Origin: a virus
Direction: 5' to 3' (one strand)
IMG/VR virus record: IMGVR_UViG_3300036715_002570
Span: 32,001-96,000 of that record
DNA length: 64,000 nucleotides
Both the position numbers and the translations under genes were made by a program. The notes beneath the pieces are model-generated. The model saw nothing but the letters and a program-made list of their open reading frames with translations. It made no database searches and was not told the DNA's origin. This document shows positions 5,172 to 43,366 of the stretch, piece after piece. Numbering within the stretch: position 1 is the first letter of the stretch; each line of letters begins with the position of its first letter.

Positions 5172-5570
5172 ACAGGCTTAGAGGAAGTTCGGGGCTACAC
5201 AGAGCAAGACTCGGCGCTCTGTGGGAGACACCATGTGCACTTACGGAAGCCGTCCTTGAGACGAGTTGACCTTCCAGTGCCTCGACAGTCGGGTAGAATA
5301 CGCTAGTGCTCTGAGCATGAAGGTCGCAATAGGTTGGTAGCCGCCGCGATCAGTTCCCTCGAGTAGGCGTACCTATCTGGACAACATGCCGTTCGCGGGC
5401 CGGGAGGTGCGGTCGTTTGTACCACAACGTTGACTGTAGCAAGCCAAACAGATCCTGCTGACGTTGCTCGCCGAGGGATCGGGTTGGTGCAGCTGCCTAT
5501 AAACGGCAGCCAGGTCGTAAGGCCTGAGATGAATGATGAATTAGAAACAGGACTCCGGCTATGAGTTCTC
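5130..5570 (+). ncRNA. rnpB: RNase P RNA (bacterial type)
   Basis: GAGGAAGTTCGGGGC (CR-I), TAGCAAGCCAAA, AGATGAATGAT, ACAGGACTCCGGCTA (CR-V); P1 GAGAAC/GTTCTC, P2 ATTCATC/GATGAAT, P3 TGAGTC/GGCTTA. Confidence 0.88.
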
Positions 5571-5984
5571 CGCGACACTGCTAGCGCTCAAATATTGGAT
5601 TGCACTTTCCAGTATTTGGGCGTTATCTTTTGCCAAGCCCAACATTACATTGCAGTTTCGACAGAGGATTCCACGCACAGCTCCGGTAGTGTGGCAGTGA
5701 TCGACGGCAACCAAATTGGATGTGATGGGCGCTAGCTTGTCTTTGCATATAGCACACTTACCATCTTGATCAACGATCATTTGCTTTTTGTGCTCTAACG
5801 TAATGCCGTACTTCTGCTGAAGGCGCTCACACGGCGTCATTCGTCTTCGATTCGGATGTGATTTCGACCATGCTCGCGATTTGGCCTTAGCGCACTCCTT
5901 GCACTTTGAATGGATGACCCCTTCTTTTGACTTGTAGAAATCTGGTTCTGGCTTGATAGTAGCACATTGCTTGCATTGTTTCAT
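5559..5984 (-). CDS. endonuclease VII-type HNH homing endonuclease
   Basis: Q.GKCAIC...VDHCHTTGAVRGILC..CN..LG. Confidence 0.88.
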   Translation of the reverse strand: MKQCKQCATIKPEPDFYKSKEGVIHSKCKECAKAKSRAWSKSHPNRRRMTPCERLQQKYGITLEHKKQMIVDQDGKCAICKDKLAPITSNLVAVDHCHTTGAVRGILCRNCNVMLGLAKDNAQILESAIQYLSASSVAENS

Positions 5985-6113: not shown

Positions 6114-6297
6114 ACGTAAGTGAGCGGTTTTGTCCGCTCACTTACGTTCACCCTTCATATATACGGTTGTTGAGATGATTGCGGATCGCATTTATTGTTT
6201 CAACAACCGTAACGAGAAGTCAGGCCTCATCAAATTCTGACACAACAGCCAATCGGACAGACCGATTGCGTATCAACTATTGCAAAGGAACTTTGCC

Positions 6298-8155: not shown

Positions 8156-8978
8156 CTACGGAACGTGAGGATCCGTTTCTGTTAGCGTGCCATCATTAGC
8201 AACCCACAACGGAGCGCCGACTGTGCTCCAATTCCAGTCGGGATTGACGATCGTTGATGTTTGTAAGTCGTCGTACGTCGCCAGATTCAATTGGCCGAAA
8301 TCAGAGAACTTAACAACCTGATACTTGGCCATTGTCTCAAGAGCCGTGCCAGTAACCACAGTTGCGTCAAGACGGACCGGGTTGATCACCGAACCGTCGA
8401 CAAAGAAGTTGCTTTCAGAGGTAAAAAAAAGTGCCGTTGCTCTGGCGAATTGGCACACCTACAGAATCAGTGATAATGTGGCCCACGGCAACATTTGCTG
8501 TGTTTAGGTCAACCTGTGATCCTGCATATGGCTTCGACGGAAAGCCAGCCCCAAGGCCAGCAAACGTTGATGTGTTGACCTTGGCAGCAAATACACGAAT
8601 CACTTCGCGGTAACGCCCGCTGGTAAACACGTACTGGATCGCATTAGTTGTATCAAACCAGTGCTGATCTGGAACACCAGGAATCTGCGATGGACTATAT
8701 ACAGGCTTAACAGTTGTAAATCCAAACGTACGAGCCCCAGTGCGCAGATCAAGATCCCAGTACAGCCAGCAATCTATACTAGACGGAATTGGACCCCACG
8801 CATTGTTAACGTCTGTATCCTCAGTCAACAGGTAATCAGCTGTGCGGTGTGCAAACGCAACATCAACGTGAGAGGTTGATGCACGTAGGGAAACGTACAA
8901 CCCTTGCTTCTGCAAAAACGCTTGTGCACCACCAGAAATTGGGTAAGAGACGATACCCTGACGGAAATTGATTCGCAT
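8156..8978 (-). CDS. virion structural protein, frameshifted at an A8 run (~8423-8430)
   Basis: MRINFRQGIV N-terminus, late promoter GTATAAATA upstream; frames 8415-9002 and 8156-8458 join as GTFF|TSESNFF if one base is removed. Confidence 0.6.
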
Positions 8979-9079: not shown

Positions 9080-9919
9080 ATGGCCTTCATCGACATACAT
9101 ATCGTCCCGAAGTTGAACGCGACAGATGACCCAAAAGTACTCGGCGCGATCTCTGTGATCGAGAACCTTGCCAACCAGCTTGGGGTTCCTGTCGTCCCAG
9201 AACAATCAGTGAATAGTGGAACACTATGTATCGCCGTCGGCGGTGACGGGACGATGATCGAAGCAATGCGTCGCGCTGCTCGATCCCGAGGATGGGCCCT
9301 AGGGATTAACCTTGGCCACATCGGCTTCTTGACTGACTACACAGCAACCTCACAGCTGCATGAGCAGTTGCGTGATGTGATCTTCAACCTCGATGAAATG
9401 CATCAGAGTGACTTCATGAGCTTCGAACGCCGAGCGGTATTGGAGAACTCTCTCGTTGACCGGCTGGCAATAAACGACGTGTCAATCTCGTCGCTCGCCT
9501 CCGATGAGATGATCAAGTACCAACTACTGATTGACGACCATAATGCAGGGATTCACCGAGCAAACTCATTGTTGGTGTCGACAGCGACAGGATCAACAGC
9601 GTACTCCCTGTCGGCTGGTGGAGCACTATTGATGCCCGGCATGCAATCGATCCAGGTTGTGCCAGTCGCCGCAGCTACGATGACGTCTCGCCCCCTGATC
9701 GTCAGCAGTCGTTCAAAGGTTACTGTCCGCGTGTTTGGACAGGGGGTTTCGGTTCGCGTGGATGGCCAACGTGTGTTCTCGAGTGAACAATCGTATACGA
9801 AGGATGCTCCGTTTGAAGTGGTTGTCAACCGGTATTCGCAAGATGTTGCTGTGATTCACCCGAAGGGCTGGAACTTTTTTGACATGCTGTCTATGAAACT
9901 TGGGTGGATCAAGGAATGA
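9080..9919 (+). CDS. nadK: NAD kinase
   Basis: GGDGT, GINLGHIGFL, ND, STATGSTAYSLSAGG. Confidence 0.93.
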   Translation: MAFIDIHIVPKLNATDDPKVLGAISVIENLANQLGVPVVPEQSVNSGTLCIAVGGDGTMIEAMRRAARSRGWALGINLGHIGFLTDYTATSQLHEQLRDVIFNLDEMHQSDFMSFERRAVLENSLVDRLAINDVSISSLASDEMIKYQLLIDDHNAGIHRANSLLVSTATGSTAYSLSAGGALLMPGMQSIQVVPVAAATMTSRPLIVSSRSKVTVRVFGQGVSVRVDGQRVFSSEQSYTKDAPFEVVVNRYSQDVAVIHPKGWNFFDMLSMKLGWIKE

Positions 9920-15702: not shown

Positions 15703-15897
15703 GAACATTCAAAATTACGGTCAAAGCTCGCCGCGCCAAGATCGAATTTGCGCCCGGTATGGGCGTTGGAACTCTGGTGTCCCGGGAGATCAGCTCCCCG
15801 ACAACGCACGTGAGGTTGAGATGGGACTGATGGTTGACAATCTGTGTCAAGAGCTGATTCGAGATGCAATCGAAGTCACGACCGAGGAGGTCACGAA

Positions 15898-16995
15898 ATG
15901 AAGAAGTACCTCGTAGGTGGTGCGGTTCGTGACCTGCTGCTCGGGATCAAGCCGAAGGATCGCGACTGGGTGGTAGTAGGATCCTCTCCTGAGGAGATGC
16001 TCGCACTTGGATACCAGCAGGTAGGAGCATCTTTCCCCGTCTTCATTAAGGATGGTGAAGAATATGCACTGGCGCGTACCGAACGAAAGACGGGCGTTGG
16101 ATACAACGGGTTCGATGTCACGTTCGATCCTTCTGTCACATTGGAGGAGGACCTGATCCGCCGCGACCTGACGATCAACGCGATGGCGCTCGACATCGAT
16201 ACGTACCAACTGATCGATCCGCACGGCGGTCGCAGGGACTTACACAACGGAATCCTTCGCCATACCAGCCTCGCGTTCGCGGAAGATCCCGTCCGTGTTC
16301 TCCGCACAGCTCGGTTCGCTGCTCGGTACCAGTTCTCCGTGGATCCGACAACGATCCGTCTGATGTCCGACGTTGCACATGAACTTGTGCACGTGCCCCA
16401 AGAGCGGATCTGGGCGGAGTTCAAGAAGGGCCTGACGGAAGATACACCTCATCTGATGATGGACGTTCTCAGCCGCTGTGGCGCGTTGTCAACACCTGCG
16501 CTCGAGATCTACAGCCACGCCAATTTGGACATGATCCGGAATCTGTCCCCAACCCATCCAATGCACGTTCGCCTTGGCGCTGTGTTCCGGAACACAGTGG
16601 GTGACGTCAATGCGTGGTCGAAAAAGCTGAACAATGCGAAGATCCCTGCTGCATTGATCAAGATTCTCGTCACGTACCTGCGTGAGTATGACATCCTGTA
16701 CAACTACTGTCTGCAAGATGCGGATACACGCGTTCGGTTGCTTGACCGCCTTCGTGCGTTCTCGGATCCGAACCTGTTGTCACACGTGATGGATTGCATG
16801 ATCAACAACGATCTGATGTACTTCTACGTGTATCGCCCAATCCCGTCGTATCTGACCGGTCAGAAGGCGGCAGCTTTTCGTGATCTCGATACGATTCAAG
16901 CGAACGTTGACAGCGTTGCAATCGCTGCGTCAGTCGATACCAAGTCGATCAAGCAGGCGATTCATGATGCACGCGTTGCGGCATTGAGCAAGTAG
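15898..16995 (+). CDS. cca: tRNA nucleotidyltransferase (CCA-adding enzyme)
   Basis: [12 protein letters not shown]...[47 protein letters not shown]. Confidence 0.95.
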
Positions 16996-18821: not shown

Positions 18822-19150
18822 TGGCTGACGCATTCAAAATTCTAGGCCAAGCAATCCCCGCCGCTACGACGCTGACGGACGTGTATACCGTCACTACTGG
18901 CGCAATGGCAACCGTGTCCACGGTTACGTTCTGTAATCAATCAGCAAACGCAACAACAGTACGCATGGCTGTAGCTGTTGCGGGAGCAGCAAACACACCT
19001 GCACAGTATGTCGTAATGGACGCCTCCGTTCGTGGCAACGACACTCTAACACTAACGATCGGGATGACTCTCGGATCAACTGACGTTCTGCGTGGTTATA
19101 GCGCTAACGGACAAGTGTCAATCAACGTTTTTGGTGTTGAGGTACAATAA
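18821..19150 (+). CDS. virion protein
   Basis: KILGQ..PAATTLT.VYTV...SINVFGVE family pattern. Confidence 0.6.
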   Translation: MADAFKILGQAIPAATTLTDVYTVTTGAMATVSTVTFCNQSANATTVRMAVAVAGAANTPAQYVVMDASVRGNDTLTLTIGMTLGSTDVLRGYSANGQVSINVFGVEVQ

Positions 19151-20943
19151 TGTCCGCAGGATCAATCCTCAATCTGTCACCAAGTGAAGGCACCACAGGC
19201 CAAGCAGTTCCAGGAGTTGCTCAATTGTTGGGCTACTCCAGCGGCGGTACGTTAACAGGTGTTGCTGTTTCAGCCGGTCTGCCCGTATCACTAAACCAGA
19301 TTTACTACCCCTCAAGCGCCGCCAACAGCAGCACCGTCCAGCTCGCAGCAGGCGCCTCATTCACAGGCTCAATTGAAACGATCCTGAGTCTCCAAGCGGC
19401 GCAGATTGAAATCGTTTGCGATCAACCGTACACTGTAACGATCAACCAGTACATCGATGCTGCAGGAACGAAGCTGTCGAGCACAGACGTGTTCACTATT
19501 GGTGCAGGCGTACCGTTTTCTCAGAACGTAACGCTGCCAGGCAACTACTTTAATTTGGTTGTAACAAACAATGGTGTTGTACCAACGACAACGCTGACGA
19601 TTAACACCACGTTTGGTATCATGGATACGTTGCCGCGTACGCTTACGCTGCTTGGTAATGCTCGCGTCGCTCTGAATGAAGTTGGTGGCACTGCACTGAC
19701 GCTTGGACAAAAGACGTCCGCGGGCTCCATTCCCGTCGTCCTCCCATCGGATCAGGTCGTCATAGTACAAGACACAGACAGCTCCGTTGTGTACTCCGCA
19801 ACGTTGAATGCTATCGGTTACGGTACGTCAATCGACACCTCAGGCGCAGGTGCTGTAACGTTCCAATTTGTCGGCTCCGGCTTCTGGAACATTGGAATTG
19901 AAGGTAGTAACAACAACACCAACTGGGCTCCCGTGTTGATCCAACGCCTGGACAGCAACACTCTGACAGAATATGTTGGTCATGCTGGCAACTTTGCCGT
20001 TAAGACCAGTACGCGCTACCTACGTCTGAACGTTCGCGCGATCGTTGGAACGGCTACAGTCACAGCAGTAGCCCGCAACACTGTGGGGCCAAGCCCGTCA
20101 GACTTGCTAGCTCTTGCTCTTGATTCAGAACACAACGTCCAAATGAACGTCAACTTGGCATCCGGCCTAAAGACGGACGCTGTACAGGCGATGGTTCCGA
20201 GCGACGCCCCACTGCCAATCACGATTCAAGCAGCTGTCAACACGCCGTTCATCATTGACACGCAAGGTTACTCAACATTGCACTTGACCACTGCTGCTCT
20301 TGCAGGTGCACTAACGTGCTCCAACGATAAGGTTACGTGGTCTGCTTTGCAGGCTGTACCAATCGCAATTGCCGCACCAGTGAGTTCGATTGTGGCCAAC
20401 ACTGGTTACGTGATCAACTGCTCGGCACGATACATTCGTATCGTGCCGACGACTGCTGGTACAGCAGTCGGTTACCTGCGCGCCGCCGCTCCTGCCCTAA
20501 CTACGTCAAACATCGCATTCGTTGGTAACTCACTGACCGCGTCGCCAGGCCTTGCCGGCGCATTTGCAGTTGGTGGCGGTACAGCTGCTGGCGCCGCTAC
20601 ATCAATGTACCCGGTTCTTGTAGGTGGTGTTGATACCGGCGCCCTCGTTCGTCGTCTCCTAACAGATACTGCAGGCCGTCTTGCTGTAGCAGCCGATCAG
20701 GTTGGCTCGGGTGTTCGCGCTCCAAGTACACAAACGTCATATTTGAACGGTGCAGCACTAAATATACAGGACACGTCGCAGTTTGAAGGTCAATCATTCG
20801 TAGAACTGCTGGCTCAGATCCTCCTCGAACTGAGGATTATGAACCAGTATATGTATGATCTGCCAGAAACCCTACAGAGCGGTTATGGCTTTACCTCTGA
20901 ACCGCAACACTTCCGTGCTGATACCACGGTATTCAACCTATAA
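19150..20943 (+). CDS. tail fibre / virion structural protein
   Basis: 597 aa, beta-rich, within structural operon. Confidence 0.6.
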   Translation: MSAGSILNLSPSEGTTGQAVPGVAQLLGYSSGGTLTGVAVSAGLPVSLNQIYYPSSAANSSTVQLAAGASFTGSIETILSLQAAQIEIVCDQPYTVTINQYIDAAGTKLSSTDVFTIGAGVPFSQNVTLPGNYFNLVVTNNGVVPTTTLTINTTFGIMDTLPRTLTLLGNARVALNEVGGTALTLGQKTSAGSIPVVLPSDQVVIVQDTDSSVVYSATLNAIGYGTSIDTSGAGAVTFQFVGSGFWNIGIEGSNNNTNWAPVLIQRLDSNTLTEYVGHAGNFAVKTSTRYLRLNVRAIVGTATVTAVARNTVGPSPSDLLALALDSEHNVQMNVNLASGLKTDAVQAMVPSDAPLPITIQAAVNTPFIIDTQGYSTLHLTTAALAGALTCSNDKVTWSALQAVPIAIAAPVSSIVANTGYVINCSARYIRIVPTTAGTAVGYLRAAAPALTTSNIAFVGNSLTASPGLAGAFAVGGGTAAGAATSMYPVLVGGVDTGALVRRLLTDTAGRLAVAADQVGSGVRAPSTQTSYLNGAALNIQDTSQFEGQSFVELLAQILLELRIMNQYMYDLPETLQSGYGFTSEPQHFRADTTVFNL

Positions 20944-21887: not shown

Positions 21888-22514
21888 TCATAGTCGCGCC
21901 TGCGCTTTCATCCCTGCATCCAGTAGTTCTTCTTGGAATTGATTGATGTCATGGTGTGAGACGTCAAAGTTGATGTTGCGTTTTGACCGCACAATGTGTA
22001 CTGATGAAATTCCTGGGATTAGTGCTAGCCCAAGGATGTTGGTCATATTAGGAGACAAGTATACTCCCTCCTTGACTACGAGGGCCTTGTGCGTCTTGTG
22101 AATGCCAGACAATGACTGGATATTCTCTAGGTACATCAGATTCAGGAACCTCCCAATCTTCGTTGGCATGTGCTCCAACGAAGTCAGCTTAGGATTATAC
22201 TTGATGGATAGCATGCCGCCAACTTGTGAAGGTGCAAATGCCAAAGTCGTCAGCTGACGACTCATAGACATGTCACCACCAACCACAGATGGAGCTCCCC
22301 TCAACGTTGTCAGATAAGAGCAGTAGAAGTTACCTGTCACAATGCCAAATTGCACAGGTAACACACTTTCGTCGTAGCTGATACTACCATTAACGTGAAC
22401 AATCCCGTCCTTATCAGCGTTCCATTGACCGGCAATGTTGAACCGATCCATCACTCTATCGAGGTCCCCAGGGAACGTTGCAGACGTTGAATCAAGAATT
22501 TCGGTTAAGCGCAT
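21888..22514 (-). CDS. leucine-rich-repeat-like late protein
   Basis: LTTL.GAP..VGG repeats; MRLTEILD N-terminus; late promoter. Confidence 0.65.
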   Translation of the reverse strand: MRLTEILDSTSATFPGDLDRVMDRFNIAGQWNADKDGIVHVNGSISYDESVLPVQFGIVTGNFYCSYLTTLRGAPSVVGGDMSMSRQLTTLAFAPSQVGGMLSIKYNPKLTSLEHMPTKIGRFLNLMYLENIQSLSGIHKTHKALVVKEGVYLSPNMTNILGLALIPGISSVHIVRSKRNINFDVSHHDINQFQEELLDAGMKAQARL

Positions 22515-22677
22515 AGCAATCCTTCTTTCAAGTTATTTATCTGACCCCGTTGACTCAATAGGCTAAGTGACGGATAGTCAACGAACTGATTTCAACATCG
22601 CGATTGCAACTTTTCTTGCAGTTGCCATAAATACCCATACAGACAATCACGTCTACCAAATACAAGAGTTACACGAA

Positions 22678-22758
22678 ATGTTCACCACAACTGTTATCAC
22701 CGTCAAGGTCGTGACAAATGCGATTAAAAATTCGCAGGGGACTCTTCGTACCAATTAA
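22678..22758 (+). CDS. attenuator leader peptide of the tRNA operon, MFTTTVITVKVVTNAIKNSQGTLRTN
   Basis: Short ORF after promoter 22626; composition matches the downstream tRNA isotypes; 3' end overlaps the antiterminator strand. Confidence 0.8.
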   Translation: MFTTTVITVKVVTNAIKNSQGTLRTN

Positions 22759-22813
22759 GCATCTGCTAATTAACACAAGAGCCCCGCAGAACTAGTTTCT
22801 CCGGGGCTTTTTT
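22734..22813 (+). terminator. attenuator: antiterminator (22734-46 with 22777-87) versus intrinsic terminator (22777-22813)
   Basis: GCAGGGGACTCTT pairs with AAGAGCCCCGC; alternatively AGCCCCG...CGGGGCT followed by a U-run. Confidence 0.85.
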
Positions 22814-22889
22814 GTTAGTTTGTCGAAATTGAAACCAGCTCGATTCCGCGCGTCAACATGCGAACCGCGGCAGCATTTCAACCAGATAC

Positions 22890-22905
22890 TGTTCTTTTAC
22901 AATTT
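22890..22905 (+). promoter_or_regulatory. boxA-like Nus antitermination site
   Basis: TGTTCTTTTACAATTT versus rrn boxA TGCTCTTTAACAATTT, 12 nt before the first tRNA. Confidence 0.7.
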
Positions 22906-22916
22906 GCGCACGTTTT

Positions 22917-22987
22917 GGGCTTGAAGCTTTAAGGTGAAGCAGCGGACTTTTAATCCGCAGAAGAGGGGTCAGTACCCTCCAGGCCTA
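22917..22987 (+). tRNA. tRNA-Lys(TTT)
   Basis: GGGCTTG/CAGGCCT; GCGGA-CTTTTAA-TCCGC. Confidence 0.85.
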
Positions 22988-23003
22988 CAAATGTGTCTAT
23001 TGC

Positions 23004-23091
23004 TCCGTCCGGGCTGGCTTGGTGAAGGCCTCTGACTGTTAATCAGAAGGATGCAGAAAATGCATGCGAGGATCGTAACCTCGGGACGGAG
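23004..23091 (+). tRNA. tRNA-Asn(GTT) with long variable arm
   Basis: TCCGTCC/GGACGGA; TCTGA-CTGTTAA-TCAGA; extra arm ATGCA-GAAAA-TGCAT. Confidence 0.8.
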
Positions 23092-23110
23092 CAATAGACA
23101 CTTAGACAAT

Positions 23111-23186
23111 TCCTCTTTAGCTCAGTTGGTAGAGCGTTGCACTGTTAATGCAAATGTCGTTGGTTCGAACCCAGCAAGAGGAGCCA
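23111..23186 (+). tRNA. tRNA-Asn(GTT)
   Basis: Canonical cloverleaf, CCA end. Confidence 0.95.
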
Positions 23187-23191
23187 AATTT

Positions 23192-23265
23192 GGGATGCAA
23201 GCTTTAAGGTGAAGCAACTGGCTCTTACCCAGTAGAACTCGGTTCAATACCGTGGCGTCCTACCA
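23192..23265 (+). tRNA. tRNA-Lys(CTT)
   Basis: ACTGG-CTCTTAC-CCAGT, CCA end. Confidence 0.9.
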
Positions 23266-23267
23266 CT

Positions 23268-23339
23268 CTTCCGTTGGTGTAATTGGCAACACAGCTGGCT
23301 TTTACGCAGTCGTTCTCGAATCGTTGCCGAGGCGGAGGA
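23268..23339 (+). tRNA. degenerate tRNA with TTT anticodon (Lys)
   Basis: D-arm GTGT/ACAC intact; acceptor and T-arm weak. Confidence 0.5.
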
Positions 23340-23382
23340 CTTAGACGATTATAGAACAACATAATATCTGGAGACGAAATAG

Positions 23383-23619
23383 ATGATTGGTGTCACGACC
23401 CTCTCGCGTGAAGAACGCGTTAAGCTGAAGAAGGCGCTCGAACGAATCGAGGAAGAAGCAACGAAGACGTACGCGATCACACTAAAGATCGTCGTCAAGG
23501 AAACTCGCAGTGACGACCTTGCAGAACCGGGAAGTGCAGTTGACAGCATTGTTGACGTGCTGCTACCTGGCTCTGAAAGGCTGGTCGTCCTCAACCTGAC
23601 GTTCCCTGACGAAGAATAA
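23383..23619 (+). CDS. hypothetical protein
   Basis: GGAG RBS, within tRNA cluster. Confidence 0.6.
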   Translation: MIGVTTLSREERVKLKKALERIEEEATKTYAITLKIVVKETRSDDLAEPGSAVDSIVDVLLPGSERLVVLNLTFPDEE

Positions 23620-23629
23620 CAGGACAAAT

Positions 23630-23701
23630 TACCGCGTAGCTCAGAAGTAGAGCAACACTCTTACAAAGTGAAGGTCGAGATTGCAAAATTCTCCGTGGCA
23701 A
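23630..23701 (+). tRNA. tRNA-Val(TAC), atypical T-loop
   Basis: CACT-CTTACAA-AGTG; D-arm GCTC/GAGC. Confidence 0.7.
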
Positions 23702-23707
23702 CAAAAT

Positions 23708-23781
23708 GGTCGCGTAGCTCAATTGGTAGAGCGTTCTCTTGATAGGGGGAATGGTTGTAGGTTCAACTCCTACCGTGGCCA
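23708..23781 (+). tRNA. tRNA-Ile(GAT)
   Basis: GGTCGCG/CGTGGCC; loop TTGATAG. Confidence 0.85.
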
Positions 23782-23788
23782 CAAATAT

Positions 23789-23860
23789 ACCCGCGTAATT
23801 CAGTGGTAGAATGCACGCTTGATAGGCGTGAGGTCGTAGGTTCAAGTCCTACCGTGGGTA
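23789..23860 (+). tRNA. tRNA-Ile(GAT)
   Basis: ACCCGCG/CGTGGGT; CACGC-TTGATAG-GCGTG. Confidence 0.9.
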
Positions 23861-23923
23861 CAATGTTTAGGATACGGTACTATACCATATCGACTCATAA
23901 ATAACTTCAGCACAGGAGTTAGC

Positions 23924-24562
23924 ATGCAGTCTATGGAAATTATTCGTCAGGTGGAGATTGAGCGGCTTATTGAGGCATATGCTGAAACAGGGTCAATCGC
24001 AGGTGTGGGTCGAGTGATGGGAATATCTGTTAAGGCTCCATGTGTTCGCAAGCTAATAAAGCAGCGCCTGGCAGCAGCAAGCCCATCATTAATGAAGGAG
24101 CATTCCGCCCGCGGATCGTATAGCATTGAGCAAATAAGAGCTGCAGTAGCGAAATCGATCTGTATGTCAGAAGTGTTGCGAGAAATTGGATTAAGTACAC
24201 ATGGGTCTTGCGCTAATGTAATCAAGCGAATCATGAAAGAACACAACATTCTTTCAGATCACTTTGATCCTGCTTTGGCGCTTCGTAAAGGTAACGCTCG
24301 TAGATGGTCACCAGACGAAGTGTTTATCGAGCACAGCCCAATCCCACGGGCCACTCTGCACACGCATGTTAAACGGCATAACGTAATTGGGACACCGGTG
24401 TGCAGTGAATGTGGAGTTGCAACTACTTACAATCGTAAGCCGATTTCTCTGACCGTTGACCATATAAACGGCGTTAGTGATGATAATCGAATAGAAAATC
24501 TAAGGTGGCTATGTCCAAATTGTCATTCACAGACGAGTACGTATTGTGGGAAGAACAAGTGA
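23924..24562 (+). CDS. HNH homing endonuclease (paralogue 2)
   Basis: LTVDHINGVSDDNRIENLRWLCPNCH; own late promoter. Confidence 0.9.
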   Translation: MQSMEIIRQVEIERLIEAYAETGSIAGVGRVMGISVKAPCVRKLIKQRLAAASPSLMKEHSARGSYSIEQIRAAVAKSICMSEVLREIGLSTHGSCANVIKRIMKEHNILSDHFDPALALRKGNARRWSPDEVFIEHSPIPRATLHTHVKRHNVIGTPVCSECGVATTYNRKPISLTVDHINGVSDDNRIENLRWLCPNCHSQTSTYCGKNK

Positions 24563-24590
24563 CGGTGTTTCTTGCAGAGAAGTAAAGAAC

Positions 24591-24663
24591 GGGCCTCTAG
24601 TATAGGGGATATTATGCCGTGCTTGCACCGCAGAGACCTAGGGTTCGATTCCCTTCTCTCCTA
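24591..24663 (+). pseudogene. chimeric tRNA: Ala(TGC) 5' half joined to a Val-like 3' half
   Basis: GGGCCTC does not pair with CTCTCCT; CCGTG does not pair with CGCAG. Confidence 0.6.
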
Positions 24664-25110
24664 CAAATAAAAAAGACATGCACACGATGCAAGCAAGAAA
24701 AGCTTCTACAAGACTTCACACGAGACTCATCCCAAAAAGAAGGACATTATTCTGCTTGTAAATTGTGCAAGCGTTTCACAGCCAGGATTCGTCATAAAGG
24801 TGATAATGTGGCGCAGGCGCGAAACAAGCTAAGAGTACAGCAAACATCGCAGATGATTCGTGATAAAAAGTCTTCAGGATGCATTGTATGTGGTGAGCTT
24901 GAGCCAGTCTGCTTAGATTTACACCACACGGATCCAAGTAAGAAAGACGTTGATCCAAACAAGCTGTGGAACCGTGTGTGGGATAAGTTCATGCAGGAGG
25001 CACAAAAGTGTATTGTCGTGTGTAGTAACTGTCACAAAAAGATTCATGCAGGGATGATCGTCAGCCAGTGTGACGGGACTGCAACAATGTTAAGAGCTGA
25101 TCAAGTGTAA
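24619..25110 (+). CDS. HNH-type endonuclease overlapping tRNAs at both ends
   Basis: CTRC, CKLC, CIVCG...LDLHH.DP, KCIVVCSNCH.KIH. Confidence 0.75.
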   Translation: MLAPQRPRVRFPSLLQIKKTCTRCKQEKLLQDFTRDSSQKEGHYSACKLCKRFTARIRHKGDNVAQARNKLRVQQTSQMIRDKKSSGCIVCGELEPVCLDLHHTDPSKKDVDPNKLWNRVWDKFMQEAQKCIVVCSNCHKKIHAGMIVSQCDGTATMLRADQV

Positions 25111-25167
25111 GTGGTGACACGCCTCTCTCGTAAGGAGGAGAACGGAGTTCAATTCTCCGGATCAGCA
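25096..25167 (+). tRNA. tRNA-Thr(CGT)
   Basis: GCTGATC/GATCAGC; CCTCT-CTCGTAA-GGAGG. Confidence 0.88.
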
Positions 25168-25173
25168 CAAATT

Positions 25174-25244
25174 GCCCCTATAGTTAAATGGTATAACAGG
25201 ACCTTTGTAACGTTCAGTCCACAGTTCGATTCTGTGTAGGGGCA
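25174..25244 (+). tRNA. tRNA-Thr(TGT)
   Basis: GCCCCTA/TAGGGGC; loop TTTGTAA. Confidence 0.85.
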
Positions 25245-25353
25245 CACACTGCAAACAATGGAGGATGCTATGACACAGCTAAACGCAGAACCAATGGAGT
25301 ACCGCGCAAGTCGGTAAACGGAGTTTCAAACAAGTTCAAACAAGTTCAAACGA

Positions 25354-25692
25354 ATGTCTGAACTTTACAGGCACTTTTCCAAAGACTGGGAGCATGTACT
25401 TGATTACTCTGATCAAGCACTACTCGACTTGTACAACCAAGAATCATACGGTGGCCGCGTAGAGTCCAACAACGGATTCGCTGTCGGTAAGAAATGGTTG
25501 AACGTCTACGTAACAGCATGGAAACAATCGATCAGAGAAGGTACTCTGTTCGTCCATGAACTGTACGAAGACCCAGGTTTCCCACATTGGTGGCTAGATA
25601 GCGTACTGAAGGGTGTGTACGACAATCTAGACGTCTGGTGGCAAGACTACAGCAAGACGAAAGTACATCATGATCTCACAAGCGCTTCATAG
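25354..25692 (+). CDS. hypothetical protein
   Basis: ORF. Confidence 0.6.
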   Translation: MSELYRHFSKDWEHVLDYSDQALLDLYNQESYGGRVESNNGFAVGKKWLNVYVTAWKQSIREGTLFVHELYEDPGFPHWWLDSVLKGVYDNLDVWWQDYSKTKVHHDLTSAS

Positions 25693-25993
25693 CAAGTTTC
25701 TAACAAACACAGACGATACGGGCCGATTTGTTGTGTATTCACAGCGAACCGGTCGTCGGTACTACGTTGAGCCGATCGAAACACAACACACCCCCAAGTG
25801 GGGTTCAGTTGATCCAGCAACGGGTGAACTGATGCACAAGAAAGGCGATGGCAAGTACCGTGGCGGTGTCTCTCCAAAGGAGAGCCTGGTCACAGCTGAA
25901 AACGGGTTCAGCATCATTCATGAGCTTGGTATTGGCGTGAGCCCACACCATGCAATCGATGTGATTGATGCTAAGTATCCAGACAAAGCATAA
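25670..25993 (+). CDS. conserved hypothetical protein
   Basis: TGRFVVYS.RTGR.YYVEPI...WGS.DPATG...KY.G pattern. Confidence 0.65.
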   Translation: MISQALHSKFLTNTDDTGRFVVYSQRTGRRYYVEPIETQHTPKWGSVDPATGELMHKKGDGKYRGGVSPKESLVTAENGFSIIHELGIGVSPHHAIDVIDAKYPDKA

Positions 25994-26079
25994 CAGGCCA
26001 ATGTACAAACAGTGTCCCGGGTTCATTGTTATGCTGTAGTAGGGTTTCCTCACTTTGTCCCACCTATACAAAGTGATAC

Positions 26080-26153
26080 GGGGGCGGGGTGTTTACCGGA
26101 TAGCATATTACCCTTGCAAGGTTTTGGATCGAGTTCGAGTCTCGACGCCTCCA
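26080..26153 (+). tRNA. tRNA-Ala(TGC)
   Basis: GGGGGCG/CGCCTCC with G3:U70; loop CTTGCAA. Confidence 0.85.
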
Positions 26154-26448
26154 CAAACGCTGTTGATTTACCCTGTTGTAATCGAGAAGATTATGTCACA
26201 AATGGGAATAGTCAGGGGCGAGAAATGGAAAAAGCACTCGTGGTATTCGGTTGCACGATAGTTGGCGGTGGTGCTGGCTATCTAGTCAGCCCCGATGGAA
26301 CTGCCGTGACAATCGGAAGTGCAGTCGGTTTTCTGATTGGCTGCATGTTGGTCAGTGGCAGCGGCGGCGACGGCGGAAGTGCAGCGATCGTTGACCTGAT
26401 TGACGACCTCACTGACGGCTTCGCAACCAGTCACCACTGACAATTTTT

Positions 26449-26514
26449 GGGGATTAGTACAGCTGGAAAAACGCTAGCCTTGCACGCTTGAGTCAGGAGT
26501 TCGATCCTCCACCA
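26449..26514 (+). pseudogene. tRNA-Ala(TGC) with collapsed 3' end
   Basis: TTCGATCCTCCACCA: T-stem and acceptor 3' strands merged, consistent with loss of one ATCCTCC repeat. Confidence 0.6.
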
Positions 26515-26541
26515 GCTAGAAGTCAAACAAAGACAAATAAT

Positions 26542-26615
26542 AGCTCCATAGCTCAATGGTAGAGCACTGCGTTGACATCGCAGATACGAAGGTTCGATTC
26601 CTTCTGGAGCTACCA
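26542..26615 (+). tRNA. tRNA-Val(GAC)
   Basis: AGCTCCA/TGGAGCT; CTGCG-TTGACAT-CGCAG; CCA. Confidence 0.93.
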
Positions 26616-26626
26616 ATTAAAGGAAC

Positions 26627-26959
26627 ATGATGATTTACGTCGCAGCACCACACAGCGACCCTGATCTTGCGATCAAGGACGCTAGGGTGCGCGAGTTCTA
26701 CGAGTTTGAGACCACCAAATATAGTCAGATGCCTGATGATTGGGTCTACTGGCAACAGTACAGTGAGCAAATGCTGAGCAAGTGTGACGGGATGGTCTTG
26801 CTGCTGCTAGAAGGCTGGGATAAGTCGACGGGCGTCCTCGCAGAACTCCGTACTGCCGAGACAACGGAATCCCATCCTCGTGACGGATGTCCGCTGGAAG
26901 CAGTTGTACGTTCCCGGACAGGGAATCGAATCATTCGTCATCAAACTGATAACCACTAA
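26627..26959 (+). CDS. DUF1937-like protein, possibly internally deleted
   Basis: IYVAAPHS, GWDKSTGVLAE. Confidence 0.55.
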   Translation: MMIYVAAPHSDPDLAIKDARVREFYEFETTKYSQMPDDWVYWQQYSEQMLSKCDGMVLLLLEGWDKSTGVLAELRTAETTESHPRDGCPLEAVVRSRTGNRIIRHQTDNH

Positions 26960-26986
26960 ATAAGTGGTCCAGTTAAGGGAGCCCTT

Positions 26987-27145
26987 ATGCGTCTGCAAGA
27001 CCTTTCATTCATCACAGAACAACAACTCCGTGAGCAAGCTGTTGCCCAACAGGCTCATGCTTTGCTAGAATCTGCAACTCCTGAGGAACTGATTTTGTCG
27101 GAACCTCGCAGCGCAGAAGACGTAATTGCGGAGTTGTACAAGTGA
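26987..27145 (+). CDS. small acidic protein, putative antitoxin
   Basis: 52 aa ending SAEDVIAELYK; GTGA overlap with the RelE-like gene; promoter CTAAATA. Confidence 0.55.
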   Translation: MRLQDLSFITEQQLREQAVAQQAHALLESATPEELILSEPRSAEDVIAELYK

Positions 27146-27495
27146 TCGAAGTTCGCACGTGCATCTTGTTTCGTAAAACCTCGGTACAGCACTCACGTGA
27201 TCCGCGAGTGCGCGACAAGATCGTAGACTTCATCCGATTCAAGTCAGAGCACCCCCTTGAGTTGTATGGCTCGAAGGATCGTGCGTTTGCTAATGAAGGC
27301 AACTTGCGTGGTTTCATCCACGCAGGCCTAACGTTTGACGTTTCGATCGTGTACAAGATTGGGATGGTCGGTGGTAAGCGGACGTTGGATCTGTACGGCG
27401 TGTTCTCCCACGACGAGCTTGGTACAGGCCAGCCTCGTAACATCAATCGTCAACGTTCTGCTGGTGAAAAGCTGCGGAACCAAGAGATGGAGTAA
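27142..27495 (+). CDS. RelE/YafQ-like ribonuclease toxin
   Basis: L.G..HA.L..DVSIVYKI...L.LYGVFSHDEL. Confidence 0.65.
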   Translation: MIEVRTCILFRKTSVQHSRDPRVRDKIVDFIRFKSEHPLELYGSKDRAFANEGNLRGFIHAGLTFDVSIVYKIGMVGGKRTLDLYGVFSHDELGTGQPRNINRQRSAGEKLRNQEME

Positions 27496-27510
27496 CGCTC
27501 CATCTTTCAT

Positions 27511-27581
27511 GCTCTGTTAGTATAGTGGGATAATAACTCCTTGGTACGGAGTAGACACAGGTTCAATTCCTGTACAGAGCA
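27511..27581 (+). tRNA. tRNA-Thr(GGT)
   Basis: GCTCTGT/ACAGAGC; ACTCC-TTGGTAC-GGAGT. Confidence 0.88.
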
Positions 27582-27594
27582 CAAAACATCGCCT

Positions 27595-27667
27595 GGTGAG
27601 CGTAGCGGGTGACACCTCCTCTCCTACAAAGAGGTATTGCAGGGTTCGAACCCAGCCGTGGCCACCA
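27595..27667 (+). tRNA. degenerate tRNA-Val(TAC)
   Basis: CCTCT-CCTACAA-AGAGG, T-loop, CCA; D-arm damaged. Confidence 0.55.
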
Positions 27668-32728: not shown

Positions 32729-33409
32729 ATGAAGACAATTGTCGAAATCCACTCCGCTGAAGGCGGTGACGACAGCAAGTTGTTTGTTAAGGACCTAGCA
32801 CAAGCATACGGGAAGATGTTCAGCCGTTTTGGCTGAAAGCACCATGTTGTGTTAGATACTTCGGGAGAGGTCCACATAGAAGTAAGTGGCACTGATCTAA
32901 CGCAGCTTAACAATGAACCAGGAGGTCATCGCCTCCAGCGTATTCCACCAACTGAACGCAAGGGTCGCGTCCATTCCTCATCGGTAATGGTTGCCGTAAT
33001 CCGTGTTGATCAATATGCCCAACCTGACTATTCGAAGATTGATCCGTCGGACTTCAAGATTGAATGGTACTCGGGAACAGGTGCAGGTGGACAACATCGC
33101 AACAAACACCAAAACAGCATCCGCTTGACCCATGTTCCTACAGGAGCAATGGTCACATCTCAGTGTCGTAGTCGAGAGAATTCGTACGCTGAGGCAATGC
33201 AAGAATTGATCAAGCGTCTGCAATCGGACGCAAAGTACCGCAGCATTGTGGCACAGTCAATTGAACGCAAGAAGCAGATGGGCTCTGGTATGCGTGGCGA
33301 CAAGGTACGGACGTACCGGTTCCAAGATAACATTGCGACTGATCATCGCACAGAGAAAAAAGTTCCGCTGTCCAAAGTAATGGACGGTAATTTTGATTTG
33401 TTGTGGTAA
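32729..33409 (+). CDS. class I release factor, RF1-like, lacking domain 1, with in-frame TGA at 32834
   Basis: AAGGAG RBS; VEIHSAEGGDDS, GGHRLQRIPPT (PxT), GAGGQHRNK, RTY.F...TDHR; codon 36 is TGA where RF1 has GW. Confidence 0.88.
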
Positions 33410-35034: not shown

Positions 35035-35215
35035 GTGTTTGATCTCCAAATAGGATATTTATGCTAACATTGTTTCTTGATACAGAGTTTTACCGACTTC
35101 GGAAGCCGAATGGAATGCAGCAGTACTACAACATTGACCCGCGCCAACACCATGCGCTCGTTGATGCAAAAGCAAACCACCATGGCTGGTGGCAAGGATA
35201 TCAGGCAGGACTACA

Positions 35216-36172
35216 ATGAATAACACGATTGACAAACTCCATGGCGGTTTATACGGCGCCTTAATTGGTGACGCCGTTGGTGTACCGTATGAGTTCAAGA
35301 CAACTCTACAGATCCCCCACCCCCCAACGATGGTTCCACCACCTAAGTTCAACCGATCGTATCTTGGCGTCCCTCCTGGCACGTGGTCTGATGACGGTGC
35401 GCTGACGCTATGTCTGATGGAATCGTTGTTGAAGGCCGACGACTGGCTGGATACCGACTGGGTGCACGCGTTCGGACACCGGATGTCAAGGTGGCGATAC
35501 GAAGGGTACATGACGCCAGACAACAAGAAGTTTGACATTGGAAACCAGACCTCGGAGGCAATCCGTCTCCTGGAGTTTGGCCTTGATCCACTCGAGCTGA
35601 CGTATACAGAATACGAAAACGGCAACGGCGGCTTGATGCGTGCACTTCCTGTTGTTCTGGCGTTGTGGAAGTCGGAAGATATCGACCTAATCTGCGCCGT
35701 CTCGGACATGCATCACATGGTGTCGCACGGCCATCCAATCTCGTTGATCTGCGGTCAAATCTACGTAATGACAGCGATCATGCTGCTGCGTGGCGATAAG
35801 TTTAACGACGCCTTCTGGGCTGCCGTTGACATTGTTGAAGCTCGGTGTGACGATACCGAATGGCAAGGGCATTTCGCTACTGTCCTTGCAGGGAAAGACG
35901 AAGAGCCTCGCGGCACGGGATACGTTGTTGACACGCTATGGTCGGCACGTTTTGCAGTGCAAAGTTCGCTGATGGGCGATAACACGTTCATGAATGCAAT
36001 CGAACGCGCCATCCTTCTCGGTAACGACACAGACACAACTGCATGCGTGGCAGGTGGATGGGCTGGTATCATCTACGGCTGGAAGGGCATTCCTCAAGAG
36101 TGGCGTGATGGGTTGCGCGGTAAAGACCTCGTTAAGCCAATGGCAGATCGACTGGTGGCACTAAATGACTGA
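35216..36172 (+). CDS. ADP-ribosylglycohydrolase (DraG family)
   Basis: GALIGDAVG.P.EF, WSDDG, GNGGLMR, GNDTDTTACVAG. Confidence 0.92.
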   Translation: MNNTIDKLHGGLYGALIGDAVGVPYEFKTTLQIPHPPTMVPPPKFNRSYLGVPPGTWSDDGALTLCLMESLLKADDWLDTDWVHAFGHRMSRWRYEGYMTPDNKKFDIGNQTSEAIRLLEFGLDPLELTYTEYENGNGGLMRALPVVLALWKSEDIDLICAVSDMHHMVSHGHPISLICGQIYVMTAIMLLRGDKFNDAFWAAVDIVEARCDDTEWQGHFATVLAGKDEEPRGTGYVVDTLWSARFAVQSSLMGDNTFMNAIERAILLGNDTDTTACVAGGWAGIIYGWKGIPQEWRDGLRGKDLVKPMADRLVALND

Positions 36173-38156: not shown

Positions 38157-39296
38157 ATGACACTAATCACATACTTAACAAAAGCATACAGGAAAGCTGT
38201 AGGTTGGTTTGTTACTAAGCGCGACAACCGAATCTGGGAAGAACGGCTCGCTTCAAAGCTAAAGCTGTTCACTGCGAACGACCATGCATGGGTTACCCCC
38301 GTGTTGCAGAATGAGATTGCGTTTATTCGCAGCTCGTTCTCGAACTACAAGTTCGACTCATCACAGCAGGCGCTGCAGACAGATGAAGTGGCAACAATGG
38401 TGTTTAATGCCACTGTGTACGCATGCTTGGAACTAGTCCCTCTGAGAGGACTAGTTAGTATTCAACCATTGCAAGGTCCCGTCGGATTGGTATACCGGGC
38501 GGCGTACAAGTATCAAGATCCCGCAGTACAGGACAGCCAGTCGCTCCACCTTGAAGTGCTCAAGCACGCCGTTGAGGCAAAGACTCACAAGCTGGCAGCA
38601 AGGTTTAATGTTGAGGCAGCACAAGACTTATTCGCGATCTACGGGATTGACATCGCAGACGGGATTGCACGAGCCCTTGGTGCTGAAGTTGCGTACGAGT
38701 TGATTGCAGAGGTCCTCTGTGATTTGAACAAGATCGCAACCCACCGTCAGACAGTATCAGGCCTGCCGCACGATGACAATGCGATCATGATCAACGCAGT
38801 TGCGAATACAATTGCATCAACTACCCGTCGCGGCGCGGGCAACTTTATCGTCACATCTCCAAGGGGCGTCGCTCTACTGCAATCTGTATCGAAGAGTGGC
38901 TATGTCAAAACACCGGACTCTGAGCAGACGCACACCTATGCGCTGAGGCAAGTCGGTACTCTCAACGGCCAAATGCGTGTGTACGTGTCAATGGTTGACA
39001 TGAACGATAGTTCACCAAACATTGAATACCTGATCGGATACAAGGGTCCTAGCGACGTTGATGCGGGATACGTCTTTAGCCCGTACAATCTAGTGGTATA
39101 TAGTGGCGCCACGATTGATCCGAATACATACACCCCAATGATCAACCTCATGACTCGGTACGGTAAGACGGGTATCCAGTGTGATCCAACGACATCGAGT
39201 GAATCTGCGGATTACTACGGAGTGGTCACGGTTGAGGATGTATCGTACGCTGTCCCTGTTCCTGCGGTTGACTTACCCGCATGGGTTAGAAGATAG
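38157..39296 (+). CDS. divergent major capsid protein (gp23-like) paralogue
   Basis: VSIQPL.GPVGLVY, EAAQDL.A.YGID, TRRGAGNF, GYKG.S..DAG..F.PY, MTRYG. Confidence 0.85.
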   Translation: MTLITYLTKAYRKAVGWFVTKRDNRIWEERLASKLKLFTANDHAWVTPVLQNEIAFIRSSFSNYKFDSSQQALQTDEVATMVFNATVYACLELVPLRGLVSIQPLQGPVGLVYRAAYKYQDPAVQDSQSLHLEVLKHAVEAKTHKLAARFNVEAAQDLFAIYGIDIADGIARALGAEVAYELIAEVLCDLNKIATHRQTVSGLPHDDNAIMINAVANTIASTTRRGAGNFIVTSPRGVALLQSVSKSGYVKTPDSEQTHTYALRQVGTLNGQMRVYVSMVDMNDSSPNIEYLIGYKGPSDVDAGYVFSPYNLVVYSGATIDPNTYTPMINLMTRYGKTGIQCDPTTSSESADYYGVVTVEDVSYAVPVPAVDLPAWVRR

Positions 39297-41550: not shown

Positions 41551-42399
41551 ATGGAGATATTTATGACAGTAACAGAGACGTGGTTTCAGGGCAAGCGGAG
41601 CATGGATAGGTGCTTGTGTGAAAATTGTGGTGCACAATATATTCAGCGATCTTGTGACACCAGGACACGGCGCGCACGAAAATTGTCAGAGGGATTAGAT
41701 TTGTGTGCCGATTGTACTAAGATGCGACACACAGCCGCTTTGGTTGCAAATGGAATTCGAGCCTTGCGAAAGCGTACCCCTGAGCAGAGAAAACAAGATG
41801 CAGCCAATGCTGGCAGGATTTCAGCGCAGAAGCACGACCCTGCTAAAAGCAGTCGTTTTACAAATGAGCGTTGGAACCAACTTACCCGAGAAGAACAACA
41901 ACGGCGTGTCAAAAAAGCTAGTGCAGCATCTCACGAATTGCTAAAGGACCCCGTCCACGCAGCAGCTCGATATGCAAAAATCTTTGCACAAGCACAATTA
42001 GGCTACATGTCCAAGGCTCATGCTCAATTGCATGGGTTAATAGAACAATATGGTTTTGAAAGTCACGTTCAAATCAGCGCCATGCAGGTGGATGAATGTA
42101 ACCGACAGTTAAAGATTGTTGTTGAATATAATGGTGATATGTGGCACTGTAATCCAAAAACGTGGCGAGCTGACCAATATAACACTATCATTAAGATGAC
42201 AGCCGGTGAAAAATGGGCCAAGGACCGAGCGCGATATGCTTTCTTACGTAGAGCTGGATACACAGTAATTGTCATCTGGGAAAGTGGTTGGAAATTAGAC
42301 CCACAAAAATACATCGATAGAATAAAGGATACGTATGATGAAATTAGTAAGCAAAAAGAGCATTCAGAGAGAAACGTGCTACGACCTGTCAGTACATAA
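41551..42399 (+). CDS. free-standing DUF559/Vsr-like endonuclease
   Basis: QVDE...KIVVEYNGD.WH, D..R...L...GY.V.VIWE; promoter CATAAATG at 41527. Confidence 0.8.
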   Translation: MEIFMTVTETWFQGKRSMDRCLCENCGAQYIQRSCDTRTRRARKLSEGLDLCADCTKMRHTAALVANGIRALRKRTPEQRKQDAANAGRISAQKHDPAKSSRFTNERWNQLTREEQQRRVKKASAASHELLKDPVHAAARYAKIFAQAQLGYMSKAHAQLHGLIEQYGFESHVQISAMQVDECNRQLKIVVEYNGDMWHCNPKTWRADQYNTIIKMTAGEKWAKDRARYAFLRRAGYTVIVIWESGWKLDPQKYIDRIKDTYDEISKQKEHSERNVLRPVST

Positions 42400-43366
42400 T
42401 CATCACAACTTTTTTGCCAACGGTATTTGTGTTCACAATACGAACGCTGCCGTAGCACACCAAGCAGGGACTACGTGGTGTCAATCTCGTGATAACATCA
42501 TTACGATGATGTCGGACAATGCTGGCTTTGCGACGTGGGTCCACTCGCAGCGCGAGTTGTTTGACTGGATGTTCTCGTACCTAAAGGCCGTCCTCAACCC
42601 AACGGATGACCAGGCGATCATGATCTTCGGTGAATGGTGTGGTGGCAGCATTCAAAAGAGCGTCGGGCTGAACCAGCTGCCGAAGATGTTCGTGGTGTTC
42701 AACATCGCCGTCGTTGATGCAGAGGGTGAGAAGGTATGGCATGGTCGACATCTGATCCCCGCCCTGTTCGATGAGATCGAGCTCCAAGGTAAGGCCATTC
42801 CCGCCCTCAAGAATACGTATCAATTTGAGACGTTCGGTATTGAGATCGACTTTGCCCGCGCATATGCAGCTCAGGAACCGTTGGCTGCAATGACGCTCGA
42901 AGTTGAGAAGGTATGCCCTGTCGCCAAGGCCCTCGGCGCTGTTCCCAATGATAAGGGAATAATCGTCGGTGAAGGGATTGTTTGGATATGCACTCACCCT
43001 GACTATCAAGATAGCAGCTATTGGTTCAAGGTGAAGGGCGACGAGCACGCTCCGAAGACAAAGGTCAAGACGCTGGCTGCGGCAGACGTTGTCCGCCTGG
43101 ACTCGATCAACGAGCTTGCGGATTTGCTGTGCCCGACGTGGCGTCTGGAACAGATGTACGAGCAAACGTTCAACACGTTGAATGGCGGTAAGCCAGACAT
43201 CAAGAGGACGGGCGAGTTCATCCGTGCAATGATGGCCGACATCGTCAAAGAGTGTTCCGATGATGTTGCGGCGTCCGGGTTTACCATGAAAGACATTAGT
43301 GGGCGCGTCAGTAAGCACGCACGAGACTATTTGATCAATCAACTGAACGCAGAAGCATTCGGTTGA
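42335..43366 (+). CDS. split intein C-part (42335-42439) plus RNA ligase C-extein (Rnl2-like)
   Basis: YDLSV..HHNFFANGICVHN|TNAA; FGEWCG..IQK, GEGIVW, FKVKG, ADIVKE. Confidence 0.88.
   Translation: MMKLVSKKSIQRETCYDLSVHNHHNFFANGICVHNTNAAVAHQAGTTWCQSRDNIITMMSDNAGFATWVHSQRELFDWMFSYLKAVLNPTDDQAIMIFGEWCGGSIQKSVGLNQLPKMFVVFNIAVVDAEGEKVWHGRHLIPALFDEIELQGKAIPALKNTYQFETFGIEIDFARAYAAQEPLAAMTLEVEKVCPVAKALGAVPNDKGIIVGEGIVWICTHPDYQDSSYWFKVKGDEHAPKTKVKTLAAADVVRLDSINELADLLCPTWRLEQMYEQTFNTLNGGKPDIKRTGEFIRAMMADIVKECSDDVAASGFTMKDISGRVSKHARDYLINQLNAEAFG

Follow-up and report, generated by a model that had tools for sequence, protein, structure and literature searches.

A putative ribosome-operated attenuator upstream of a phage tRNA gene array

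The array, its leader and their predicted folds

The window analysed here comprises 64,000 nt (positions 32,001 to 96,000) of the jumbo phage record IMGVR_UViG_3300036715_002570, which is linear, 150,677 bp long and ~64% complete. It carries an array of transfer RNA (tRNA) genes, array C, that is preceded by a short open reading frame (ORF), leader C, and an intrinsic terminator in an arrangement suggestive of a leader-peptide attenuator (Table 1). Positions are those of the window unless marked as genome positions, which refer to the whole record. G000 denotes the virus record under study, G001 a complete relative of 350 kb, and L-numbers further viral loci.

Array C encodes, in order, Lys, Asn, Asn, Lys, Lys-like, Val, Ile, Ile, Ala-like, Thr, Thr, Ala, Ala-like, Val, Thr and Val-like genes. 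A first-pass annotation, made from the sequence alone, had described 16 tRNA or tRNA-like genes of only six types. All anticodons fit these types, but default ARAGORN or Rfam calls only 12 of the 16 genes. The Lys-like gene at 23268 is called by relaxed ARAGORN only, and the degenerate copies (Ala-like 24592 and 26450, Val-like 27590) were read by eye from their anticodon loops. Ala in the array rests on one ARAGORN call. ARAGORN wrongly labels the Ala-like gene at 24592 as Pro, the effect of which is lower, not higher, specificity. A Thr(CGT) tRNA, absent from the anticodon list of the first-pass annotation, is also part of the array. The tRNA-Asn(GTT) at 23004-23092 has a long variable arm, occupies the same rank in G001 and is missed by the Rfam tRNA model.

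Every coordinate given in the first-pass annotation checks, including CATAAATA at 22626 and TTGACT-N17-GATAGT at 22550-22578. Its description of a 26-codon ORF in which codons 3-18 encode six amino acids and use all six is borne out, as is the weak ribosome-binding site. This 16-residue run is the longest of its kind in the six frames of the 150-kb genome, where the next is 11, and the longest run of the six residues within this phage's ORFs is 9. Together the six account for 38.5% of ORF residues in this phage, giving 2e-7 for a given 16-run. The ORF lies between the putative promoters and the first gene of the array, as expected of a leader peptide. The 9/12 match of the sigma70-type candidate alone is not above chance; TTGACT occurs at the same place in two orthologues. 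The late-type motif CATAAATA has 18 copies on the + strand of the genome, with ~2 expected from base composition.

The pairing of 22734-46 with 22777-87 and the terminator, both noticed in the first-pass annotation, are real. The duplex of segment 2 with the terminator 5' arm is predicted at -17.7 kcal/mol (z -4.4) and the terminator hairpin (22779-22809, T run 22808-13) at -17.3 kcal/mol, with P(terminator) 0.89 in the full transcript. A simple terminator scan missed this terminator, probably since its interrupted stem misfits the loop rule of the scan. Folding and conservation indicate that the antiterminator (2:3) and the U-tailed terminator (3:4) are mutually exclusive. When the ribosome footprint was constrained, P(2:3) was 0.67-0.97 for A-site codons 2-18, 0.29 at codon 19 and <0.05 from codon 20. 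A stall on the control codons would thus leave segment 2 free, and a ribosome further on would cover it. The earlier worry that stalls at the last sensor codons might themselves cover segment 2 is small, as P(2:3) is still 0.67 at codon 18. The hairpin at 22719-36, described in the first-pass annotation as a 1:2 hairpin, is predicted to form alongside the 2:3 stem and is therefore not a 1:2 protector. It is the same in three phages, and L069 has a different hairpin at that place. A 1:2 pairing over the start codon may form early and is predicted to be ~10 kcal/mol weaker than the 2:3 fold.

Table 1. Features of the leader C and array C region, and the leader A ORF of the same genome
Feature	Position	Strand	Basis or remark
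Candidate sigma70-type promoter, TTGACT-N17-GATAGT	22550..22578	+	9/12 consensus match
T4-late-type promoter motif, CATAAATA	22626..22633	+	Genome count; kept in L005 and L028
Segment 1 candidate around start codon	22668..22683	+	Predicted fold; pairing with 22737-22752 possible until segment 3 is transcribed
Leader C ORF, 26 codons	22678..22758	+	A-rich upstream, weak Shine-Dalgarno
Sensor tract, codons 3-18, Thr/Val/Ile/Lys/Asn/Ala only	22684..22731	+	Run search; orthologue substitutions
5-bp hairpin directly before segment 2	22719..22736	+	Candidate RNA-polymerase pause hairpin (putative role)
Segment 2, antiterminator 5' strand	22734..22746	+	Duplex with terminator 5' arm
Segments 3 and 4, intrinsic terminator hairpin and T run	22777..22813	+	Fold energy and probability
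rrn-type boxA antitermination motif	22889..22908	+	13-nt core match
tRNA array C and interspersed ORFs	22917..27667	+	ARAGORN, Rfam, direct reading
Internal late-type promoter motif before HNH endonuclease gene, CATAAATA	23896..23903	+	Motif match
Two HNH endonuclease genes within array C	23924..25110	+	PHROG HNH, E 6e-40 and 5e-30
107-aa protein, marker gene	25670..25993	+	No Pfam/PHROG family; 305 homologues
Leader A ORF, 45 codons	genome 8285-8422		Before array A; whole switch 8285-8475

A complementary cassette and conservation in relatives

A second large array, array A (genome 8601-16472), encodes His, Ser, Leu, Pro, Arg, Phe, Asp, Tyr, Gln, Cys, Glu, Met, Trp and Gly tRNAs. Apart from one weak Val it is the complement of array C, and a second leader was therefore looked for. 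Codons 3-35 of the ORF found there, leader A, include all 14 array A residues and one Val, and lack Lys, Asn, Ile, Ala and Thr. The 3' part of leader A holds a perfect 10-nt complement to the 5' arm of a U-tailed terminator. Its modelled switch lies at codon 36-37, and in both leaders the sensor tract ends at the modelled switch point. Both cassettes have a TTGACT-type promoter and the CATAAATA motif upstream. Furthermore, the 13-nt boxA core, allowing ≤1 mismatch, has two matches in the whole genome, one behind each attenuator; its identity follows the E. coli rrn boxA consensus. Leaders A and C may thus represent two sensors that cover the whole code.

Array B (genome 28362-35532) and the lone Arg and Ile tRNAs gave no leader. 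The tRNAs that lie outside arrays A and C, and for which no leader was found, are Ser, Leu, Arg, Val, Thr and Ile(TAT) (window 2326-3532, 31201 and 36614; genome 28362-32000). Two explanations of the 6/14 split, a metabolic logic of aspartate and pyruvate families and a t6A logic, were considered and fit incompletely, since Met, Asp, Leu and Ser-GCT belong to the other array. Other phages divide the amino acids between arrays differently.

G001 carries both cassettes with the same split of tRNA types, and its array C agrees in its six types and in the order of its first genes. Leader C orthologues in G001, L028 and L069 have 25, 25 and 32 codons, with GGA/AGGA upstream. Among the three alignable versions, codons 3-18 vary at many sites and, except for one His, stay within the set of six. 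Segments 2 and 3 change together: the sequences in L028 and L069 differ, yet pairing is retained at -24 and -22 kcal/mol. For leader A, nine orthologues were found. The covariation proposed as a check is present in the terminator stem, where four pairs changed on both sides in the leader A alignment, and weak in the antiterminator.

Matching of leaders to arrays across phages

The 107-aa gene of array C served as a marker and yielded ~50 further phage loci for comparison across families. Nearly all of them carry tRNA arrays, and the make-up of these arrays varies. Leaders were sought with a composition-blind rule that requires an ATG-initiated ORF 20-55 codons long, with a terminator 15-40 nt beyond its end and ≤900 nt from the first tRNA. 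The first-pass annotation had suggested looking upstream of other clusters in the same and related phages, and matched leaders are indeed found there. After removal of duplicates, 36 of the 56 phage tRNA arrays had a leader by this rule. At L033 it took the wrong ORF at a nearer hairpin; this case was kept in the permutation test and removed from the profile tests.

Scored as the fraction of its codons for whose amino acid the array has a tRNA, the match of a leader to its own array is 0.845, compared with 0.551 +/- 0.029 for shuffled pairs, and none of 20,000 shuffles reaches 0.845 (p<5e-5). With one member per obvious family (n=17) the values are 0.83 and 0.50, and the own array ranks first for 14. 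Phages with two cassettes (n=6) permit a swap test that controls for kinship and base composition: the own match is 0.80-1.00 and the swapped match 0.00-0.37. The signal belongs to reading frame 0 (0.85, vs 0.42 in the other two frames). The duplex of the leader 3' end with the terminator 5' arm has a median z of -3.9. By comparison, 3 of 83 control terminators away from tRNAs have a short ORF together with a duplex of at least -15 kcal/mol strength.

Across 33 leaders, enrichment for array residues is ~+0.4 until three codons before segment 2, drops to 0.12 at two codons and is zero from one codon onward. This end-point corresponds to the distance that a ribosome covers ahead of its A site and therefore points to the ribosome. 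Synonymous choice contributes a modest effect, as 726 of 812 in-set codons have a cognate array anticodon where 665 would be expected from uniform synonymous use.

Two leaders looked up once the rule was fixed both fitted. One is the second leader of the cultured Ralstonia jumbo phage RsoM2USA (MG752970), whose second array comprises Cys, Glu, His, Leu, Pro, Ser, Val, Trp and Tyr. Its 25-codon ORF uses exactly those nine residues in codons 3-23 and is accompanied by a 13-bp antiterminator. The other belongs to the L069 phage, in which the second array is preceded by a leader A orthologue. Leaders with Leu/Ser/Trp/Tyr, Gly/Lys/Met/Thr and Ala/Cys/Gly/His/Pro/Ser/Thr/Tyr sets likewise match their own arrays, and L098 has one leader for all amino acids. 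A tandem pair of leader-terminator cassettes lies before one array at L095:5557-5978. The RsoM2USA genome carries two leader cassettes, with leaders on the minus strand at record positions 87361-87248 and 112124-112047 and no coding sequence annotated there, and the paper that describes this phage mentions neither a leader nor attenuation (PMC8504454). These comparisons suggest that the design is common, though not universal, among phage tRNA arrays.

BlastN of both leader regions against cultured phages gave only tRNA matches or noise, and the exact DNA pattern of the leader start has 0 matches in IMG/VR. Matches of a 17-nt pattern at L029, L030 and L032 were discarded as chance, these loci having no tRNAs. 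No related viral loci were retrieved with the neighbouring genes (21888-22514 and 19150-20943) as queries.

In the 107-aa family, 45 of 47 viral loci carry tRNA genes, and the gene is usually in or beside phage tRNA arrays, making it a candidate tRNA-related protein. A CCA-adding enzyme (15844-16995), an RF-1/PCRF release-factor-like ORF (32849-33409) and an RNA ligase with an intein remnant (42335-43366) could belong to a broader kit for tRNA maintenance and translation; the best cultured match of the CCA-adding enzyme is in RsoM2USA (41% identity). This phage groups with Xanthomonas phage XacN1, near Rak2-like phages (PMC8504454). An RNase P RNA-like element (5127-5577, + strand; RF00010, full model length, 41.8 bits, gathering score 100) is a possible phage tRNA-processing ribozyme. 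Nicotinamide phosphoribosyltransferase (6280-7764), NAD kinase (9080-9919) and ADP-ribosylglycohydrolase (35189-36172) genes suggest an NAD-restoring counter-defence.

In relatives, an amber-suppressor-type tRNA (CTA) lies upstream of array A at L009:14868, L011:2901, L012:5141, L017:8395 and L018:6973; RsoM2USA and XacN1 are likewise reported to have an amber-suppressor tRNA. Few ORFs of G000 (6 of 112) stop with TAG. Stop-codon recoding in this genome was considered and is unsupported, TGA simply being the commonest stop.

A proposed switch, its rivals and known systems

G001 encodes a T4-type capsid protein, and no RNA polymerase beta gene was detected in G000, G001 or RsoM2USA by a search that divergent phage polymerases could escape. 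Given this capsid and the lack of a detected beta gene in G001, we assume as a working model that the host polymerase transcribes the phage in the cytoplasm, the compartment in which translation takes place. A Gp23-like ORF in the window (38157-39296) covers only the C-terminal part of the capsid family, and G001 has a C-terminal Gp23-like copy besides its full capsid gene.

From the anatomy, conservation, alternative folds and leader-array match, we infer translation of the leader, regulated termination and a trigger in slow decoding. Host RNA polymerase would start at 22550 or 22626, and a ribosome would translate the leader. While all six charged tRNAs are plentiful, the ribosome would move past codon 19 and cover segment 2, the terminator would form, and transcription would stop near 22812. 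Should any of the six be slow to decode, the ribosome would lag on codons 3-18 and segment 2 would pair with the terminator 5' arm. With this antiterminator formed, the polymerase would read through, aided by boxA-type antitermination, and the tRNAs would be transcribed. By analogy with rrn operons, boxA could shield the long untranslated transcript from Rho. The new tRNAs would end the stall, so that what the switch produces is also what it senses, a negative feedback. The leader A switch would do likewise for the other 14 amino acids. Any slow decoding would serve, and sequence does not tell apart uncharged tRNA, nuclease-cut tRNA and late protein synthesis demand as the trigger.

We consider it very likely that a ribosome-operated transcription attenuator of the classical type, here applied to tRNA genes, gates the Lys/Asn/Thr/Ile/Ala/Val array. 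The second matched leader, the orthologues, a leader composition that tracks the arrays and the boundary at footprint distance all support the attenuator proposed in the first-pass annotation. The phage probably makes tRNAs when ribosomes run short of them.

Some observations weigh against this reading. The spacing between ORF and terminator was written into the rule after examples had been seen. By the rule, 20 of 56 arrays, some of them truncated, have no leader, and none was found in XacN1, DLP6 or E. coli phage A4. Most leaders have weak Shine-Dalgarno signals. The leader A antiterminator is 92% paired with one pair changed on both sides, a value that 53 of 500 shuffles reach, and is weak evidence by itself. 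The equilibrium fold of the nascent RNA favours the antiterminator even without a ribosome (P 0.78). In the full transcript the terminator always wins; the switch would therefore have to be kinetic.

That a ribosome-free leader is predicted to form the antiterminator would also suit a general translation gauge, in which read-through follows whenever translation is slowed or fails, be it through an initiation block, antibiotics or shut-off of the host, as with upstream ORFs of the whiB7 or toiL type, and the codon match merely tunes the response. Such a gauge is compatible with the attenuator mechanism and differs from it in specificity only. Two leaders that jointly cover 20 amino acids, and the single all-amino-acid leader of some relatives such as L098, are in keeping with it, and the toiL leader reacts to several kinds of stall (PMC12121999). 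Each phage leader, however, almost fully excludes the codons of the other array, as seen in the swap test, which a gauge would not need, and we regard it as improbable. The switch might also be real but minor, a timing device beside internal late promoters or unregulated leak that make most array tRNAs. The CATAAATA motif at 23896 may drive the distal eight tRNA-like genes independently of the attenuator, and a weaker CTAAATA at 26956 and further late-type copies inside array A could similarly let distal tRNAs bypass the switch, a further point against strict gating. No promoter motif, however, lies between the terminator and the first eight tRNA-like genes. The motif at 23896 is that of the HNH gene, and G001 and L028 lack it at this position. 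Together with a codon match kept over many lineages, this makes a minor switch very unlikely.

Constraint at the level of RNA is signalled by a 23-nt stretch that is the same in three phages, synonymous sites included, and would be expected if the leader RNA sensed tRNAs without a ribosome, as a T-box does. Against this, no T-box or other Rfam family reaches threshold, and the signal is confined to one frame between ATG and stop and ends at ribosome-footprint distance from segment 2. Peptide sequences also vary freely among families while their composition tracks the array; direct sensing of this kind, or a peptide acting in trans, appears highly improbable. Leader C is A-rich, and A-rich DNA before a terminator could yield Lys, Asn, Thr and Ile codons; moreover, a short ORF with comparable spacing precedes 17 of the 83 control terminators. 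Chance or base composition is nevertheless hardly credible, since leader A of this genome leaves out precisely these residues, leaders with other residue sets match their own arrays, and the permutation, frame and swap tests contradict it.

The role of phage tRNAs has long been debated, with codon bias, host range and replacement of host-destroyed tRNAs as candidates. An attenuator that switches on only when decoding fails would argue for on-demand replenishment. Each leader would then be a list of the tRNAs that its phage monitors, which makes the question of their role testable. We speculate, as a serious but somewhat doubtful possibility, that the leaders give early warning when the host destroys tRNAs as a defence against phage, each switching on only the replacement block. 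Cleavage of any one tRNA would then stall a ribosome in the matching leader, and two or more sensors would provide an inducible counter-defence across the whole genetic code that recurs in many jumbo and T4-like phages. With the proposed switch, attenuation would apply to the supply of tRNAs as well as of amino acids, and to viruses as well as cells; the switch could also give 150-nt codon-programmable reporters of charged-tRNA level or tRNA-nuclease activity. No published account of leader-peptide attenuation of tRNA genes was found in a search that most subscription papers fell outside.

Among known systems, the pheM attenuator of E. coli pheST (phenylalanyl-tRNA synthetase) is alike in that a leader peptide senses a charged tRNA to regulate a component of the decoding apparatus; there this is the charging enzyme for one amino acid, whereas here it would be many types of tRNA gene. 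T-box riboswitches likewise let tRNA status decide between terminator and antiterminator, but they do so by direct binding of uncharged tRNA, not through a leader ORF, and act on genes for synthetases, biosynthesis and transport (PMC2494555). In 22520-22920, Rfam gave no match at E<=10 to a T-box, with its Stem I, specifier loop and T-box bulge. The trn array (L-array) of Anabaena PCC 7120 is a long tRNA array induced on impaired translation (PMC8421152); it is bacterial, and its paper describes no leader or attenuation. In antibiotic-sensing upstream ORFs (toiL, whiB7/wblC, vmlR) a stall in a short ORF also switches RNA structure (PMC12121999; PMC9226507), but these respond to drugs or general stress, control protein genes and show no codon match to a tRNA set. 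Phage tRNAs have also been studied as a counter-defence to anticodon nucleases; that work offers a reason for a phage to provide tRNAs once those of the host run low, and mentions no regulatory element or attenuation (PMC10264068).

In pheL, a ribosome that moves fast covers segment 2 and lets the terminator form, whereas a slowed ribosome frees segment 2 for the antiterminator (PMC3082878). Leader C falls short of the Rfam Thr, His, Trp and Leu leader families (best His_leader, 21.1 bits vs 49; Thr_leader, 14 vs 55), and leader A has no match to them. The enterobacterial multivalent attenuators (thrL, ilvGMEDA, ilvBN; also trpL, hisL, pheL and leuL) share with the phage cassettes a leader ORF with control codons, a segment 2 in the 3' end of that ORF, exclusive 2:3 and 3:4 hairpins and a U-tailed terminator. 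They regulate enzymes and sense 1-3 amino acids, whereas the phage leaders would regulate tRNAs and sense 6 and 14. Downstream of leader C lie tRNA genes, HNH nucleases and small unknown ORFs rather than a biosynthetic enzyme or synthetase. We propose that the element is a thr/ilv-like multivalent attenuator outside those named families, with tRNA genes as its putative targets.

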